Part shown: positions 21,801 to 30,800 of the stretch, one piece after another
Position numbering within the stretch: the first letter of the stretch is position 1
Layout: each line of letters begins with the position of its first letter
NCBI GenBank assembly: GCA_964450135.1
Contig: CAYVCF010000002.1
Coordinates: 1 to 34,543 of the forward strand
Reading direction: 5' to 3'
DNA: 34,543 nucleotides
Source: Candidatus Woesearchaeota archaeon
GTDB lineage: Archaea > Nanobdellota > Nanobdellia > Pacearchaeales > GW2011-AR1
The notes under the pieces: generated by a model
What the model saw: the letters and a program-made list of their open reading frames with translations, nothing else
Told to the model about the DNA's origin: nothing
Database searches by the model: none
Made by a program: the position numbers and the translations under genes

Positions 21801-24800
21801 TGTTTTATACCACAAAGAAACAGAATTATTATTTTGAGTAGTTGTTGCTGAAACATAATCCCCTGCCCCATCAAAACTAAAACTTTTTCCAAGTCGTCCA
21901 GACGCATTTTGTTGTGCGTTTCCGAATTTTGTTCCGTTGCTATTTCCTGACCACACAATTAAATTATTTCTTTTCACAAGCAAAATATCATTCTCAACAT
22001 CAACATCGTAAATTTTTCCAGAATAATTTTCTTTCCTGATATTTTTAACTTTTATTAAATTTTTATTTTCATCTAAGAAATAAACTTGTTTTCCGTTGAG
22101 GAAATCAGAATATACCTCTGTGATTGGTTGAAGCCCAAAATCATTTACAGAAAAGTTTAAATATTCTTTATAATTGTTTTCAATCATGGAAGAAATTGTT
22201 GTTAAAATTGATGTGCCTTCTGAACTTAATGAAGAATTTAAATCAGCATTAACTAAAGTAGTTAAACAATTTACAAGAAGAATGCAATTTTCTTTAGCAG
22301 ATAATTTGTTGTCTAAAAGCAAATTAACAGACGAACAAATATCTGAACTTGCATCTGAGCTAAAAGAACAAGTTGCAGAAAAACACGGACTTTGAAAAAT
22401 GGAATCTATTCCAAAAAAGTTAGTCATTGATGCAAATATTTTATTTTCATTTTTCCAGCATAAATCATTTAGAAGATATTTAATTGAAGAATTGCTAAAT
22501 TCAGATTGTGAATTAATTTCTCCTAAATTTGTTTTTGAAGAATTGATGAATTCAAAATCTAAAATATTAAAATTCTCTGGGATAGATAAATCCGAATTTG
22601 ATTTTCTGTATTCACTATTATCGTCAGAAATTATTTCTGTTAAGAGTTCTGAATATTTTTCATTTTTATCAGAAGCAGATAAAATTTCCCCGCATAGTTC
22701 TAAGAAGGACTCTCCATATTTTGCGCTTGCGCTTTTTTCAAATTGCCCAATCTGGTCTGATGAAAAAGCATTTCTTAAACAAGATAAGATTAGAATTTTA
22801 TCAACAAAAGATTTATTGAAATTATTAAGATTAGAATAGACCTTGTGCTTTGGACTAACAACTAAATCTCCTTTTTCTGTTTCAATCGCAAACATTTCAT
22901 CATCATAATCAAAAGTTTGGTATTCAATTGGTTTATCAAATTCTATTTCTCCGGTTTTTTGATTTAATGTTGCGACTTCTTCTTTTCCGTTTAAGTCAGC
23001 AAAATATTTCCAAGAATAATTATAACACTTTTTATTTTTGTCGTCGGAAACTTCAGAAAAATTTGTGCGCTCGCGTGCAAGCACGCTTTCATCAGCGCCG
23101 AAGGCGACAAATTCTTTTTTCAAATTTTCTTCTTTATAATTTTTATTCTCATTATTTTTATCTTCAATATTTTCCAAATTATTTACCCCCACAAAATTAT
23201 TTTCTCCGCAAGAAATTTCTTCTCTAACTAAAATTTTTGTCTTATTATCATAACATCTTCCCATATAATCCACAACATCTCCAGAAGAATTTACATCATC
23301 CATTCTCCACCATGCAACTAAAGAATTATCCCAATCAACAAAAGTTGAAATATTTGCTTGCGTGTCATTTGAAGTTGCGTTTATGAAAATTGAATTTTGA
23401 TTTCCACCTTGCTGTGAGCCATTTGCTGGAGTTGGAGTTTCAAATTGTGTGAAAGGTTGTGAAGTGTCTACAAAAATATGTCTGATTGTTGTCTTGTTTA
23501 CATTTCCTGCAACATCTTGAACATAAGCAGTGTAATTATAAGTTCCATCTGGTAAATTTGTAAAATTATTTTCAACTCCATAATTTGGAGCGCTTGCGTT
23601 ATACAAACTTTTAATTTCCGACGCTGACAACGCGCGATTAAATATCATAACATCGTCGATGGAGCCGTTGAAATAACTTGTAGCTGAATTACTTCTACCT
23701 ATTTCTATAGAACTTGTACTTGTCACAATTGCCCCGCTAATTATTGAATTATTTTCTAAAACCCCGTTAATATAAATTGCAGAATATCCAGAAGAGTTTC
23801 TTGTAGAAAAAATATTATACCAAGAATCTGCATTCCAATTTGAAGTAGCAGAAGACAAATCAATATAAGAACCATTATAAATAATCAATTTCAATTTCCC
23901 ATTTTGAGAAGGATAATCAAATGCTAAATAATAAGCAACATTTTTATTAATAAGACGAATATTTGAATTCGTGTTGTTTATTATCACTGCAGGTTTTATC
24001 CAAATTCCTAAAGAGATTTCATTAGAAATATTTAAACTATTTCCAGTTCCAACATCAACATAATCCCCGTCCCCATCAAACGCAAACGCCTTTCCTCTTT
24101 TTCCTGACGCTGTTTGATTTGCATTTCCATAAGAAATTCCGTTGTTAGAATTTCCTGACCACACTCCACAATTTCCGTCGTCAGATTCAAATTCAAAAAT
24201 TTCTCCTGAAATATTTAAAGAACAAAATTTGTTTTTGTCGTCGGAAAAACCAAGGACGCGAGCAGAGGGAATCGAACCCCCAAACCCCGAAGGGCACTCA
24301 GGATCAGTGAGTTGTAATAACCATTCTACCATGCCCGCATCCAAATTATCAGAATCTACCGAAATATTTAAATACTTCTCTTCTCTACAATTATTATTAC
24401 TCAGGATCAACGAGTTGGGTTCAACCATTCTATTCGAACCCTCTTTATTTTTATTTTCGTCGTCGCCAAAATTTTCTTCTTCATAATTTTTTGCATCTCT
24501 TTTTATCAAAACAATATCATTTTCAACATCAACGTCGTAAATTTTTCCAGAATAATTTTCTTTTGAAATTGATTTTACTTTTACAGGTTTATTTTCTGAG
24601 TTTAAGAAATAAATTTCTTTTCCATCTAAATAATTTTCATAAACTTCTGTGATTGGTTGAAGAGAGAAAGATTTATATAATTCTTGGTTACTAATTTTAT
24701 TATGAGAATTGCTATTAATGATTTCATTGTTACAGATAGTGAAATTTGCGGAGGCGTCCCAGTTTTCAATAACACAAGAATTATGGTCTGGCAAGTTATG

Positions 24801-27800: not shown

Positions 27801-30800
27801 TGCCACCCCGACGCAATCATTTGAATTAGCCGAAATATTTAAATACTTCTCTTCTTTACAATTTTCATAACTTGGTATCAATAAGTTGGGTTCAACCATT
27901 CTGTTCGAACCCTTTTTATTTTCTACGGAGTTTATCTTTTCTTGTGAAGTAGAAAATTCTAAAGAATTTTTTTCCTGAAAATTATTTTTATTTTTTTCTG
28001 CATAATAAACTTTATGTTTATCGCTAACAACCAAATCACTTCCATCTTCTAAAATTATTTTATACATTTCTTTATTATAATTAAATTCTTGTCTTTCTTT
28101 TGGAATTTGAAATTCAATCTCCCCTGTTTTTTGATTTAATGTCGCGACTTCTTCTTTTCCATTTAAGTCAGAAAAATATTTCCAACCATTTTCAGTTAAA
28201 ATCTTTGTTTCATTATCATAACAATATCCAGAACTATCTGAAAAATTATTTGCAACTAAATCATCAAAATGCCAATAACCAACTAATCCATTAAAAGTTG
28301 AATTTACTTTTGCATTTCCATTTGCTGTTCCATTATTTAATCCTTTATTGTCAATTCCAATTGTGGAGTTTGTATTAAATCCCCACCACGAAACTAAGTT
28401 CGCGTGTTCATAACCAACAATGTCTCTGCCCATTTCATAAAGTCGTTTTATTTCTGAAGAATTCAAAGACGAATTAAAAACCATAACTTCGTCAAGGGAG
28501 CCGTTGAAAAATTGCGTTCCATTAACTCCAATTAAAATTGTATTGTCTGTTCTATTAAATGGAAATTCTATTCCAGTTCCGCCATTATAATTATAAGTTG
28601 AATTATAAACAACATGAATCCAATTTGAAACATTTGTTTTATACCACAAAGAAACAGAATTATTATTTTGAGTAGTTGTTGCTGAAACATAATCCCCGTC
28701 CCCATCAAATTCCCCCCAGTGTTCACCTAAATCATAATTTCTATAATCTTTTGAAATATCCCAAGTTCCAATTCTTGTAGAAACATTTGTTGCTTTATTT
28801 TTTTCAATGTCAGCAGTTAAATTTAAATTATCAAAACCAGAAGAAATATTAAATTGTTTTACAATTTGGTTTCCAGTTGATTTAAATCTCGCTGACTGAT
28901 TGTTGTAAATATCTAAAATCTCCGACGCTGTTAAAGAAGTATTGAAAATCATTACTTCGTCAAGAGAGCCGTTGAAAAATTGCGTTCCATTAACTCCAAT
29001 TAAAATTGTATTGTCTGTTCTATTAAATGGAAATTCTATTCCAGTTCCGCCATTATAATTATAAGTTGAATTATAAACAACATGAATCCAATTTGAAACA
29101 TTTGTTTTATACCACAAAGAAACAGAATTATTATTTTGAGTAGTTGTTGCTGAAACATAATCCCCGTCCCCATCCAACTGCAAAGCATCTCCAAAAATTG
29201 CGTTTGTTTCGTTTACAACTGCATTTCCATACGCTGTGCCTTCGTTATTTACAGCTAAATCAGATGCATTAAATCCCTGTGTGTTTTCTTTGTCCCCGTC
29301 AAAACTCCAGTAACCAACTAAATAATTATAAGGCCGTCCCCGAGTTGAAATTGTCAAGTGCGTGTTGTTCTCTGTTTTGTTAAACATTTCTTCTGTCACA
29401 TTCATTAAATAATGCGAAGTATTTGTTAATTGTCTGTCTTCATCTTGAACAAACAACCAGCCGTCGTTATTTGAAACATCAAAACTTAAATTTGCATTTA
29501 AAATTGTTCCAATATTATTAGAGTCCTTTACATCAACATAATCAATATCTTGAGAACTTCCAGAAAAATTTATGAACCACTGAGTTGCATCAACCTGACT
29601 TCGCAAATAAACAGGCGCACTCGCGCTTCCTTGAATATTTAACGCCCCAGTAACATTAAAATTCGGCTTTGTTAAATTCCCGCCTGCTTCAAAAAATACA
29701 TAACTTCCTTGCTTTGTAATGTTCAAATTATAAAAAGAAGAATTCCCATAAATTGTAGCATTTGAAGTTCCTGCGAAAATAATTGTGGAATTTACTCCTG
29801 CTGAAAAATTTCCTGACGAGGTTTTGTTTAGGTTTCCGTAGATTGTTAAACTTGGGAATATTCCTAGAGAAGAATTAAATGCCGAAATATTTAGTTTTCC
29901 TGCGTTTCTAATTATTACGTCTCCAACAATTGTGTCGGTTACGTTTTCTGAGATAAGAGTTGTTGCTGTCGCCGATGTTGCATTATTATTATCAATAATT
30001 AATTGTCCATATGTCTGATTTGCTGTTTTTAGATAAATTGTTCCTGCACCACCTGCGTTAGCTCCTTTACCACCAAAAGTATAAAAATTAATATTATTAA
30101 AATCAGTGCCATTTGTTAAAATTACCGCAATTCTTCCTCCGCCCCCTCCCCCCATGCCTCCACAACCAATCGCCCCGGAATTAGTCCCACCACTAACATT
30201 AATACTACCTATTCCCACAATAGAATTAGAAATTAAATAAATTGATCCTCCACTACCACTGCCCCCATAATTTGTTCCCATAGAAGTAATTATTCCTGAA
30301 AGATTAGTAATACCCGTAATGTTTAAAAAAATTGCTCCTCCCCCTGAACTACTCGACCCCCCACTTCCAAAATCTTTTGGATTTATGATTGAACCATAAG
30401 TAATTCCTGAAACCCCTGTTGATGGCCAATCACCAGAACCCCCCATGCCACCATAAAAACCTCCGGAACATGCTGCTGCTCCAGAAGGTTTTCCAGGTCC
30501 ACTTCCACTACCATATCCCAACCCGCTTGCATTTATCGTTGCATTAGAATACATTGTGAAATTTTTTCCAACTGAAATTGAAATATTTCCTCCTGTGATG
30601 TTTGAGTTTGTGAGCATTGTGAAATTTCCTAAGACACTCATTACAAAGCCAGCCCCGTGATTATTTACATTAGTGGAGTAATTTACAATTGAACCATTTG
30701 TTCCTAAAATTAAATTATTAAATGAGGGAAGTGTCTCGTTGTCTGTAAAATAATAAGTATGATTCAATAAACAATCTGTGCTTCTGTCTCCTTCGTCGCA

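Follow-up and report, generated by a model that had tools for sequence, protein, structure and literature searches.

What are tRNA genes doing in frame inside intein-like insertions of a protein-coding gene, and what does it mean when their body and their anticodon point to different amino acids? This question is raised by a stretch of 34,543 nucleotides (nt) from a Candidatus Woesearchaeota archaeon (contig CAYVCF010000002.1 of GenBank assembly GCA_964450135.1; the whole stretch is referred to below as the window), in which five tRNA-like genes reside within Hint/intein-like insertions of one giant open reading frame (ORF). Each combines a long, paired variable arm and a G at discriminator position 73, as in archaeal tRNA-Ser, with the isoleucine anticodon GAU. 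The reading favoured here, which is held tentatively and at a little under even confidence, is that these genes encode independently transcribed class II tRNAs that would be charged by seryl-tRNA synthetase (SerRS) whatever their anticodon, and that travel as the cargo of a selfish, ORF-compatible cassette. The five genes are as follows.

24257..24338, minus strand: tRNA-like B1, acceptor GCGGGCA, anticodon loop CUGAUCC (GAU, C37), variable arm GCCC-UUCG-GGGU, G73
25541..25622, minus strand: tRNA-like B2, acceptor GUCGGGG, anticodon loop CUGAUAC, G73
27296..27377, minus strand: tRNA-like A1, acceptor GCCGUAG, anticodon loop CUGAUGA (GAU, G37), variable arm GUCU-AUCC-AGAC, G73 followed by an encoded CCA
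27731..27812, minus strand: tRNA-like B3, acceptor GUCGGGG, anticodon loop UUGAUAC, G73
33443..33527, minus strand: tRNA-like A2, acceptor GCCGUAG, anticodon loop CUGAUAA, variable arm UUCC-UUCACC-GGAA, G73 followed by an encoded CCA; this copy lies outside the range of the original prediction, which had been made from the sequence alone

All five were recovered as minus-strand tRNA-Ile(GAT) genes by ARAGORN (24254-24339, 25540-25623, 27293-27377, 27730-27813, and 33440-33527) and by the Rfam model RF00005, with scores of 47.5-52.6 bits (E-values of 3e-9 to 8e-8) against a gathering score of 29. The long paired arm, G73, and GAU at positions 34-36 described in the original prediction are confirmed, with a fifth copy at 33443-33527 in addition, and the variable stems that it had drawn, GCCC/GGGU around UUCG, GUCU/AGAC, and UUCC/GGAA, are reproduced in the Rfam alignments. 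There, the extra 12-15 nt are assigned to the variable region in all five copies, with posterior marks that are mostly at the maximum (an asterisk or 9) and fall to 5-8 at the 3' edge of the insert. The suspicion that these nucleotides might instead be an intron was followed up: no model gives an intron or another anticodon, and the arm covaries among relatives. With a paired variable region of 14-17 nt, every window copy is a class II tRNA (more than 10 nt, with a stem-loop of its own); the GAU anticodon of tRNA-Ile is present in five of five, but its short variable loop of 4-5 nt and A73 are present in none.

According to a review of tRNA identity, bacterial-type and archaeal SerRS rely strongly on G73 and the G30:C40 pair, G1:C72 is of importance to methanogen-type SerRS, and G73 acts as an antideterminant for the leucyl-tRNA synthetase (LeuRS) of Haloferax volcanii, the tRNA-Leu determinant being A73 (PMC9976931). 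The long arm and G73, which had been proposed from the sequence as the identity set of archaeal SerRS and which agree with that review, are found in all five window copies, and the long arm with A73 of archaeal tRNA-Leu is not found. Of the window copies, the two of the GCCGUAG type have the G30:C40 pair, and the three of the GUCGGGG/GCGGGCA type lack it.

A protein search with the second insertion retrieved homologues whose translations contain the same tRNA-encoded peptides and whose contigs carry the corresponding tRNAs. Scanning species-representative genomes for the Hint core yielded 61 loci, mostly from metagenome-assembled genomes (MAGs) labelled as Nanoarchaeota, Woesearchaeota, or Pacearchaeota, and 14 of these carry a long tRNA on the strand of the Hint ORF; additional units came from a metagenome scan with the cassette promoter and T-loop pattern, which is blind to context. 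A covariance model built from the first 19 sequences led to a set of 36 distinct class II sequences, five from the window and 31 from DPANN genomes and metagenomes. The family models score B1 at 79.1 bits (model R1) and A1 at 89.9 bits, and a sensitive family-model search of the whole window with filters off found no further copies, only a weak partial copy at 27416-27482. In viral contigs, two promoter-plus-T-loop patterns returned one false positive and nothing, respectively. Five of the Hint loci (L027, L038, L047, L061, and L064) come from MAGs labelled as Saccharibacteria, Rickettsiales, Atribacterota, Eubacteriales, and Omnitrophica; given their archaeal-type content, these bacterial labels are probably binning errors.

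The conservation of the family is that of a folded RNA. In the first 19 sequences, 94.3% of the cells in the alignment are paired and 23 of 25 base pairs have changed on both sides; in the variable-arm helix, 90.8% of cells are paired and all four pairs have changed on both sides. None of 500 shuffles reaches the observed pairing and covariation, and slid partners are paired in only 39-44% of cells. The universal tRNA positions G18, A21, U33, and the GUUC of the T loop are invariant. The cloverleaf is under selection, and the tRNA-likes are neither decaying relics nor mere DNA sites. Among all 36 sequences, G1 is invariant, the G1:C72 pair is present in 35, G73 in 34 (both exceptions have broken acceptor stems), and G30:C40 in 27. 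The anticodon loop always has 7 nt and U33, and position 37 is a purine in 35, the sole exception being C37 of B1, which had rightly been flagged as atypical. The acceptor and T stems have 7 and 5 base pairs (bp), both backed by covariation, and neither the 9/4 geometry nor the UCA anticodon (0/36) of archaeal selenocysteine tRNA is found. Three copies (L048, L076, and L088) are pseudogene-like.

It is the anticodon that varies. GAU is found in 13 of the 36 sequences, CAA in 7, AAU in 6, GAA in 4, GAC in 2, and CUC, GUC, UAA, and CAU in one each; most are of the form N-A-N, and A35 is nearly fixed (34/36). The original prediction had taken GAU as a defining feature shared by these tRNA-likes, and this fails beyond the window: loci L028 and L036 have almost the same body with GAA and GAU, respectively, and one ORF at locus L083 carries CAA, AAU, GAA, and GAC. 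The uniform GAU of the window is weaker evidence than it appears because its copies are paralogues (B2 and B3 are 94% identical over 205 nt), and GAU is in any case the commonest state of the family. The family resembles canonical archaeal tRNA-Ser in its long arm, G73, G1:C72, the frequent G30:C40, and standard tertiary nucleotides, and differs from it in its short D loop (8-9 nt), in the lack of G30:C40 in three window copies, and in the complete absence of a serine anticodon (NGA or GCU; 0/36), which specifies the isoacceptor without being an element of SerRS identity; the variable region spans 14-23 nt. G73 is kept even in the seven CAA copies and the single UAA copy. Serylation is favoured because the family retains the features of the SerRS set whatever its anticodon, which argues against both anticodon-reading enzymes and LeuRS.

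One relative with a GAA anticodon (L005:4480-4579) has a 17-nt insert in the T loop after position 59, the only intron-like insert among the relatives. This insert can fold into a helix, a 3-nt bulge, a 4-bp helix, a second 3-nt bulge, and a further helix, within 1.5 kcal/mol of the minimum free energy, and without it the T loop takes the consensus form UUCGAUU and the cloverleaf is recognised by ARAGORN. In the predicted fold, the insert looks like a substrate of the archaeal splicing endonuclease, as a single case.

Each tRNA-like is part of a larger unit with a common layout: an upstream partial copy of the tRNA comes first, then a TATA-like box at constant spacing and the cloverleaf, in most cases with a T-run after it. 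The promoter and flanking elements in the window are as follows.

24365..24372, minus strand: TATA-like box TTTAAATA of B1, 27-34 nt upstream of G1
25646..25653, minus strand: TATA-like box TTTAAATA of B2, at -31..-24
27409..27416, minus strand: TATA-like box TATATAAA of A1, at -39..-32
27836..27843, minus strand: TATA-like box TTTAAATA of B3, at -31..-24
33559..33566, minus strand: TATA-like box TATATAAA of A2, at -39..-32
27380..27388, minus strand: 5' leader UUGUAGUGG of A1, which pairs with the trailer and contains the predicted transcript start
27287..27295, minus strand: 3' trailer CCACUACAA of A1, which can pair with the 5' leader and precedes UUUU
33530-33537 and 33435-33442, minus strand: leader of A2 and the trailer with which it pairs

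In most units, AACTATATAAACTTTTCT, with TATATAAA, is located at -39; in the GUCGGGG type, AAGTATTTAAATATTTCGG, with TTTAAATA, is located at -31 to -34. An ordinary tRNA-Gln gene in a related contig has the box CTATATAAATTTTTC about 34-41 nt upstream, and this box is near-identical to TATATAAA. With the usual archaeal spacing between the TATA box and the start site, transcription is predicted to begin at about -9 in the -39 type and at about +1 in the GUCGGGG type. The first 7-10 nt of the predicted -39-type transcript can base-pair with the trailer directly after G73, and a short T-run usually comes next. The resulting leader-trailer helix lengthens the acceptor stem of the GCCGUAG type by 7-9 bp, with the encoded CCA paired. 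It covaries between loci (GUAGUGG/CCACUAC, GCAGAGG/CCUCUGC, GCCGAGA/UCUCGGC, and GCGGAUG/CAUCCGC) and has at least 6 bp in 25 of the 36 units, with a mean of 6.9 bp versus 4.2 bp when the trailers are shuffled. The possibility that this helix is a bulge-helix-bulge splice site, with the tRNA as an intron of the mRNA, was rejected; the acceptor junction is a 2x1 internal loop rather than a pair of 3-nt bulges 4 bp apart. At L003:3380-3516, the cassette ends directly after the TATA box with an abrupt change of sequence, and this short contig also carries a DDE transposase gene at another place; the truncation may reflect disruption by an insertion sequence or an assembly break.

The second conserved component is the partial copy, located 45-95 nt upstream, which consists of a hairpin containing a D-loop copy and, after it, a duplicate of either the anticodon arm or the variable arm, and which is kept in all relatives. 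The five partial copies of the window are as follows.

24399..24432, minus strand: partial copy of B1, tRNA nt 11-43, with the D loop and anticodon arm and the same GAUCC loop
25680..25713, minus strand: partial copy of B2, tRNA nt 11-43
27441..27491, minus strand: partial copy of A1, with the hairpin GAUGCUA/UAGCAUC, a D-arm copy (27457-27476), and the variable-arm copy GUCUAUCCAGAC
27870..27912, minus strand: partial copy of B3, with the hairpin GGGUUCGAAC..GUUGAACCC containing the D-loop copy, followed by an anticodon-arm copy
33591..33637, minus strand: partial copy of A2, tRNA nt 8-57, with the D arm, an anticodon-arm remnant, and the variable arm

Within each unit, the copied arm agrees with the unit's own tRNA and not with the tRNAs found elsewhere. 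The two copies of a GUCGGGG-type unit, partial and full, fall in different reading frames (NRMVE versus AEWL); the partial copy is therefore conserved at the nucleotide level, and a protein-level cause of the repeat is rejected for this type. Two further explanations of the repeat were considered. The template and variable repeats of a diversity-generating retroelement are rejected, since the differences between the copies are not adenine-specific and the scanned ORFs matched no reverse transcriptase family, and the ends of an integrated element are unlikely with only about 60-70 conserved nt between the copies and no integrase seen. A thermodynamic test of the upstream regions was not distinctive (z scores of -0.2 to -1.5). 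The original prediction had also separated the tRNA-likes into two unrelated acceptor families, GCCGUAG on the one hand and GUCGGGG or GCGGGCA on the other; the two families are real, but their unrelatedness is not established, as the cassette layout and the reading-frame phase are common to both.

The units are embedded in protein-coding sequence. The host ORF and its insertions are as follows.

12843..34181, minus strand: ORF of 7112 codons encoding a giant surface protein with LamG repeats, which reads through all five tRNA-likes, their promoters, and their partial copies
32916..33887, minus strand: Hint/intein-like insertion 1, with a Cys codon at 33887 and a terminal Asn codon at 32916-32918 followed by Ser; contains A2
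27174..28223, minus strand: Hint/intein-like insertion 2; contains A1 and B3
24150..25952, minus strand: Hint/intein-like insertion 3; contains B1, B2, and an antisense DUF433/DUF5615 pair at 24684-25308 on the plus strand
21942..23255, minus strand: Hint/intein-like insertion 4, without a tRNA-like; contains an antisense pair at 22174-22839 on the plus strand, with a PIN_2 toxin

The four insertions are paralogous; they start with C-YDN(E/K)TKIL and end with VWSGN followed by Ser (SGN|S). The Pfam Intein_splicing model matches seven of nine core sequences from which internal insertions had been removed, all below its cut-off (the best with an E-value of 1.9e-5 and 25 bits versus 35.8), and the Hint core matches the KlbA intein (2jmz) and the NrdHF intein (6zgq) in the PDB with an E-value of 1.5e-4. 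The insertions are treated here as intein-like, the sequence support being weak. In this sense the tRNA-likes are indeed intein-borne, as originally described, since all five lie between Cys1 and the terminal Asn of insertions 33887-32916, 28223-27174, and 25952-24150. They do so at several positions. B2 (25541) lies between CYDNETKIL and WKYF of intein 3, and B3 (27731) and A2 (33443) lie between the N- and C-terminal halves of inteins 2 and 1, respectively, while B1 (24257) and A1 (27296) lie between block F and the last, C-terminal strand of inteins 3 and 2, a position for which insertion 4 provides the empty-site comparison. The site between the N- and C-terminal Hint halves is the usual position of a homing endonuclease.

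Two other features of these insertions were noted. In intein 1, the region between block F and the last strand (about 33000-33210, minus strand) holds a cassette remnant, with a partial copy and a TATA box that codes for KYLNVS but no tRNA, as if the latter had been deleted. In addition, a G+C-rich island, GGCGCCUUCGGCGCU..AGCGCGCUUGCACGCGAACUCGC, is located in the N-terminal insertion of inteins 3 (25780-25830) and 4 (23060-23110) on the minus strand, with a G+C-rich counterpart at the equivalent place in L001:10540-10620. Small hairpins are predicted in the island, with a folding energy that is not distinctive (z scores of -0.6 to -1.5), and it may be another embedded RNA or a protein motif.

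The compatibility with a reading frame extends to the whole family. For each of the first 19 units, one frame is open over 314 to 7113 codons, in many cases truncated by the end of the locus, and a stop codon ends each of the other two after 1-47 codons. A codon begins at G1 in every unit except that of L042, and the length from G1 to G73 is 82, 85, 88, 91, or 100 nt, that is, 1 modulo 3, in 35 of 36; arm lengths therefore differ by multiples of three. Some eight distinct units from the context-blind metagenome sample stand alone as ORFs about 100-145 codons long. These cassettes are squeezed between genes of the same strand whose stop and start codons overlap with theirs (L075:1875-2165 on the minus strand, L084, L082, L078, L073, and L072); one lies between pheS and pheT, and another is fused as the C-terminus of a 200-codon Bro-N gene. 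A profile search of a protein database with translated cassettes returned 18 small cassette ORFs and none of the giant proteins, and thus underestimates their abundance. In the stand-alone unit L068, which has a UAA anticodon, the frame is broken at the anticodon and the cloverleaf is kept; the RNA is therefore what is conserved. Together with the near-identical cassette (94% over 205 nt) found at two different positions of the Hint domain, the sequences suggest that the cassette is mobile and does no damage to reading frames, the loops of inteins being a convenient harbour for it. Structure, conservation, identity-type features, cassette anatomy, and in-frame nesting are directly established.

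From these sequences we infer that the tRNA-likes are transcribed, processed, and charged. Transcription would proceed from the cassette promoter. For the GUCGGGG type, the start would be at +1 or close to it; for the GCCGUAG type, it would precede G1 by about 9 nt and so yield a leader that pairs with the trailer. The transcript would then be matured by ordinary tRNA enzymes and serylated by SerRS, an enzyme that does not read the anticodon, and the product would be a Ser-tRNA with an Ile (or Leu, Phe, or Val) anticodon. Misreading of Ile codons as serine would be low-level at most, and decoding on the ribosome is the weakest step of the scheme. As the cassette keeps one frame open, it would be able to sit inside coding sequence, with the Hint/intein loops of giant DPANN surface proteins as favoured sites.

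Several observations weigh against charging by SerRS followed by use as a tRNA. Three window copies lack G30:C40 and one has C37, and the rules of SerRS identity come from other organisms and may not be those of DPANN archaea. The near-invariant A35 is not explained by recognition by SerRS. In GCCGUAG-type units, the leader of the predicted primary transcript pairs with the 3' end and its encoded CCA, which could hinder maturation or point to a role other than that of a tRNA. Unless its level stays low, a serylated tRNA for AUC and AUU would do harm in an AT-rich genome. An RNA whose anticodon plays no part in decoding would account at least as well for the switching anticodons and the conserved upstream partial copy. 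The canonical anticodon arm and near-fixed A35 nevertheless hint that the loop matters. The most far-reaching version of the serine reading is that DPANN archaea harbour a mobile dual-coded cassette, in which a complete, promoter-driven tRNA gene is at the same time an ORF and, where it sits in an intein, is removed from the host protein, and whose serine-accepting tRNA with an Ile, Leu, Phe, or Val anticodon misreads hydrophobic codons as serine, deliberately or tolerably; this is considered possible, though less likely than not.

The most serious rival holds that a tRNA-shaped RNA is made and not used for decoding, its anticodon being free to drift. It is regarded as possible without being probable. 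The RNA might act as a signal for processing or punctuation, as a binding platform or decoy for a protein that recognises tRNA (a synthetase, modification enzyme, or nuclease), or as an element that the cassette needs for its spread. The exchange of anticodons between near-identical bodies (L028 and L036, and the four anticodons of the single L083 ORF) is readily accommodated by such an RNA, as are the covarying leader-trailer helix that buries the 3' end, the mimic of its own D arm and anticodon or variable arm that each cassette keeps upstream, and the C or G at position 37 of some copies. An idle loop, however, would not be expected to retain a canonical anticodon arm in 36 of 36 sequences, with a covarying 5-bp stem and U33 in a loop of 7 nt, nor to keep a purine at position 37 in 35 of them and a nearly fixed A35. 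The acceptor stem, G1:C72, and G73 are moreover the most conserved parts, pointing to a charging enzyme, and removal of the L005 insert restores a canonical T loop.

A quite unlikely explanation is that the five genes are additional isoleucine tRNAs, charged by isoleucyl-tRNA synthetase (IleRS) through GAU, that supply a long AT-rich host gene and merely tolerate the long arm. ARAGORN types all five as tRNA-Ile from the anticodon, most copies have U36-A37, the context for N6-threonylcarbamoyladenosine (t6A), and IleRS reads positions 34-36, for which the nearly invariant A35 of the family would fit. The long arm and G73 of these copies are nonetheless unlike any known tRNA-Ile; to our knowledge, all cytosolic tRNA-Ile species are short-arm tRNAs with A73. 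Relatives with the same body have anticodons of the Leu, Phe, Val, Glu, Asp, or Met type, which no single anticodon-reading enzyme can serve, and G73 is retained whatever the anticodon. The window contains no ordinary tRNA-Ile for comparison, its only other tRNA being the following.

7805..7904, plus strand: ordinary host tRNA with anticodon CUU (Lys), a short variable loop, A73, and a 27-nt intron

The intron of this tRNA sits in the anticodon loop, and the gene is missed by ARAGORN in its default mode. The ordinary tRNAs that were encountered (Lys in the window; Lys, Gln, Trp, and Gly in related contigs) have short variable loops throughout.

The antisense toxin genes of the same inteins raise a further possibility, that the tRNA-likes act as a decoy, antidote, or nuclease-resistant replacement substrate for PIN-type toxins; a decoy or replacement substrate had been put forward in the original prediction. 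VapC-type PIN toxins cut tRNA anticodon loops, genes for PIN_2 and PIN-like DUF5615 toxins are present in inteins 3 and 4, and allo-tRNAs, described below, are often found near toxin-antitoxin loci (PMC5389517). In a profile search of all ORFs in the 61 Hint loci, a toxin-antitoxin pair was found in 54, always antisense to the Hint ORF and at the usual place of the homing endonuclease; the pairs include DUF433/DUF5615, PIN_2 toxins, ParE/RelE-type toxins, and a DUF2283 gene, and the sense frame of the giant ORF stays open across the antisense pairs of the window for more than 200 codons. The pairs are not enriched beside tRNA-likes, however, being present in 12 of 14 Hint loci with them versus 42 of 47 without (Fisher p = 0.66). 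Some of the partner toxins are of the ParE/RelE type, which is not known to cut tRNA. Only one of the four window inteins has both features, inteins 1 and 2 having tRNA-likes without a toxin pair and intein 4 the reverse, and stand-alone cassettes reside in housekeeping operons without toxins. The decoy reading is very improbable; the tRNA-likes and the toxin pairs are both cargo of the same intein family, and a specific coupling between them is not supported. A purely DNA-level role, without present RNA function, would make the units sites of recombination or attachment, or captured tRNA genes in decay. This reading could draw on the direct repeat that the partial copy forms with the full one, which recalls integration sites in tRNA genes, on the pseudogene-like copies L048, L076, and L088, and on the cassette remnant of intein 1, with its promoter and no tRNA, but it is hardly tenable in view of compensatory changes in all five helices across 19-36 sequences, of the mere 60-70 nt or so between the repeats, a segment that is itself conserved, and of the lack of any integrase seen adjoining the units.

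The closest known systems are the bacterial allo-tRNAs (Mukai et al. 2017), which have a long arm, G73 or U73, and non-serine anticodons, Ile UAU being their most abundant group; they often adjoin toxin-antitoxin loci or transposon genes, some copies are degenerate, and their authors weigh both missense suppression and non-translational roles (PMC5389517). The window family likewise joins a serine-type body, with its variable arm and G73/U73, to a non-serine anticodon. Allo-tRNAs, however, have a 12-bp acceptor branch of the 8/4 or 9/3 type and are bacterial, mostly from Acidobacteria, whereas the window family is archaeal (DPANN), has 7/5 geometry, and consists of promoter-bearing cassettes with an upstream partial copy that lie in frame inside ORFs. 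The nematode nev-tRNAs are class II tRNAs with the anticodons Gly CCC and Ile UAU that are charged with leucine (Hamashima et al., PMC3333845 and PMC4300185). They share with the window family a class II body that implies another amino acid than the anticodon, but they are eukaryotic, leucine-charged, and encoded by free-standing genes, whereas the archaeal tRNA-likes are predicted to accept serine.

The in-frame insertion of the cassette has partial parallels as well. The Rickettsia palindromic elements, reportedly described by Ogata et al. in 2000, are said to be short repeats inserted in frame in coding genes and translated with the host protein; they are palindromic repeats without a gene of their own, whereas the window cassette carries a complete, promoter-driven tRNA gene. 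In SSV-type integrase genes, which contain attP, a stretch of a tRNA gene is translated as part of the protein; there, a tRNA fragment serves as the recombination site, whereas in the window family the whole cloverleaf is kept by covariation and no integrase was seen. Within the literature surveyed, whose coverage was incomplete, there was no report of tRNA genes in inteins, of long-arm tRNAs with Ile anticodons in archaea or DPANN, or of archaeal tRNAs with mismatched body and anticodon. The family is an archaeal form of the mismatched class II tRNA, and the in-frame, promoter-bearing cassette in inteins is a setting that was not found described.

Mismatched tRNAs are known from bacteria (allo-tRNAs), nematodes (nev-tRNAs), and the CUG-clade yeasts, and tRNAs in which body and anticodon disagree are rare natural experiments in the ambiguity of the genetic code. 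The present family is widespread in DPANN archaea, and its clean covariation and defined promoter make its members ready candidates for aminoacylation and reporter assays. An RNA gene, its promoter, and its partial duplicate, all open in one frame inside inteins that also bear toxin-antitoxin pairs, amount to selfish elements stacked upon one another in very compact genomes, where gene callers silently translate the tRNA genes as protein. If serylation and decoding both take place, the cassette would constitute a natural missense system travelling on a mobile element. A dual-coded cassette that misreads hydrophobic codons would be the first archaeal counterpart of the allo-tRNAs and nev-tRNAs. 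It would also contain the first complete, functional tRNA gene known to lie in frame within a translated ORF.

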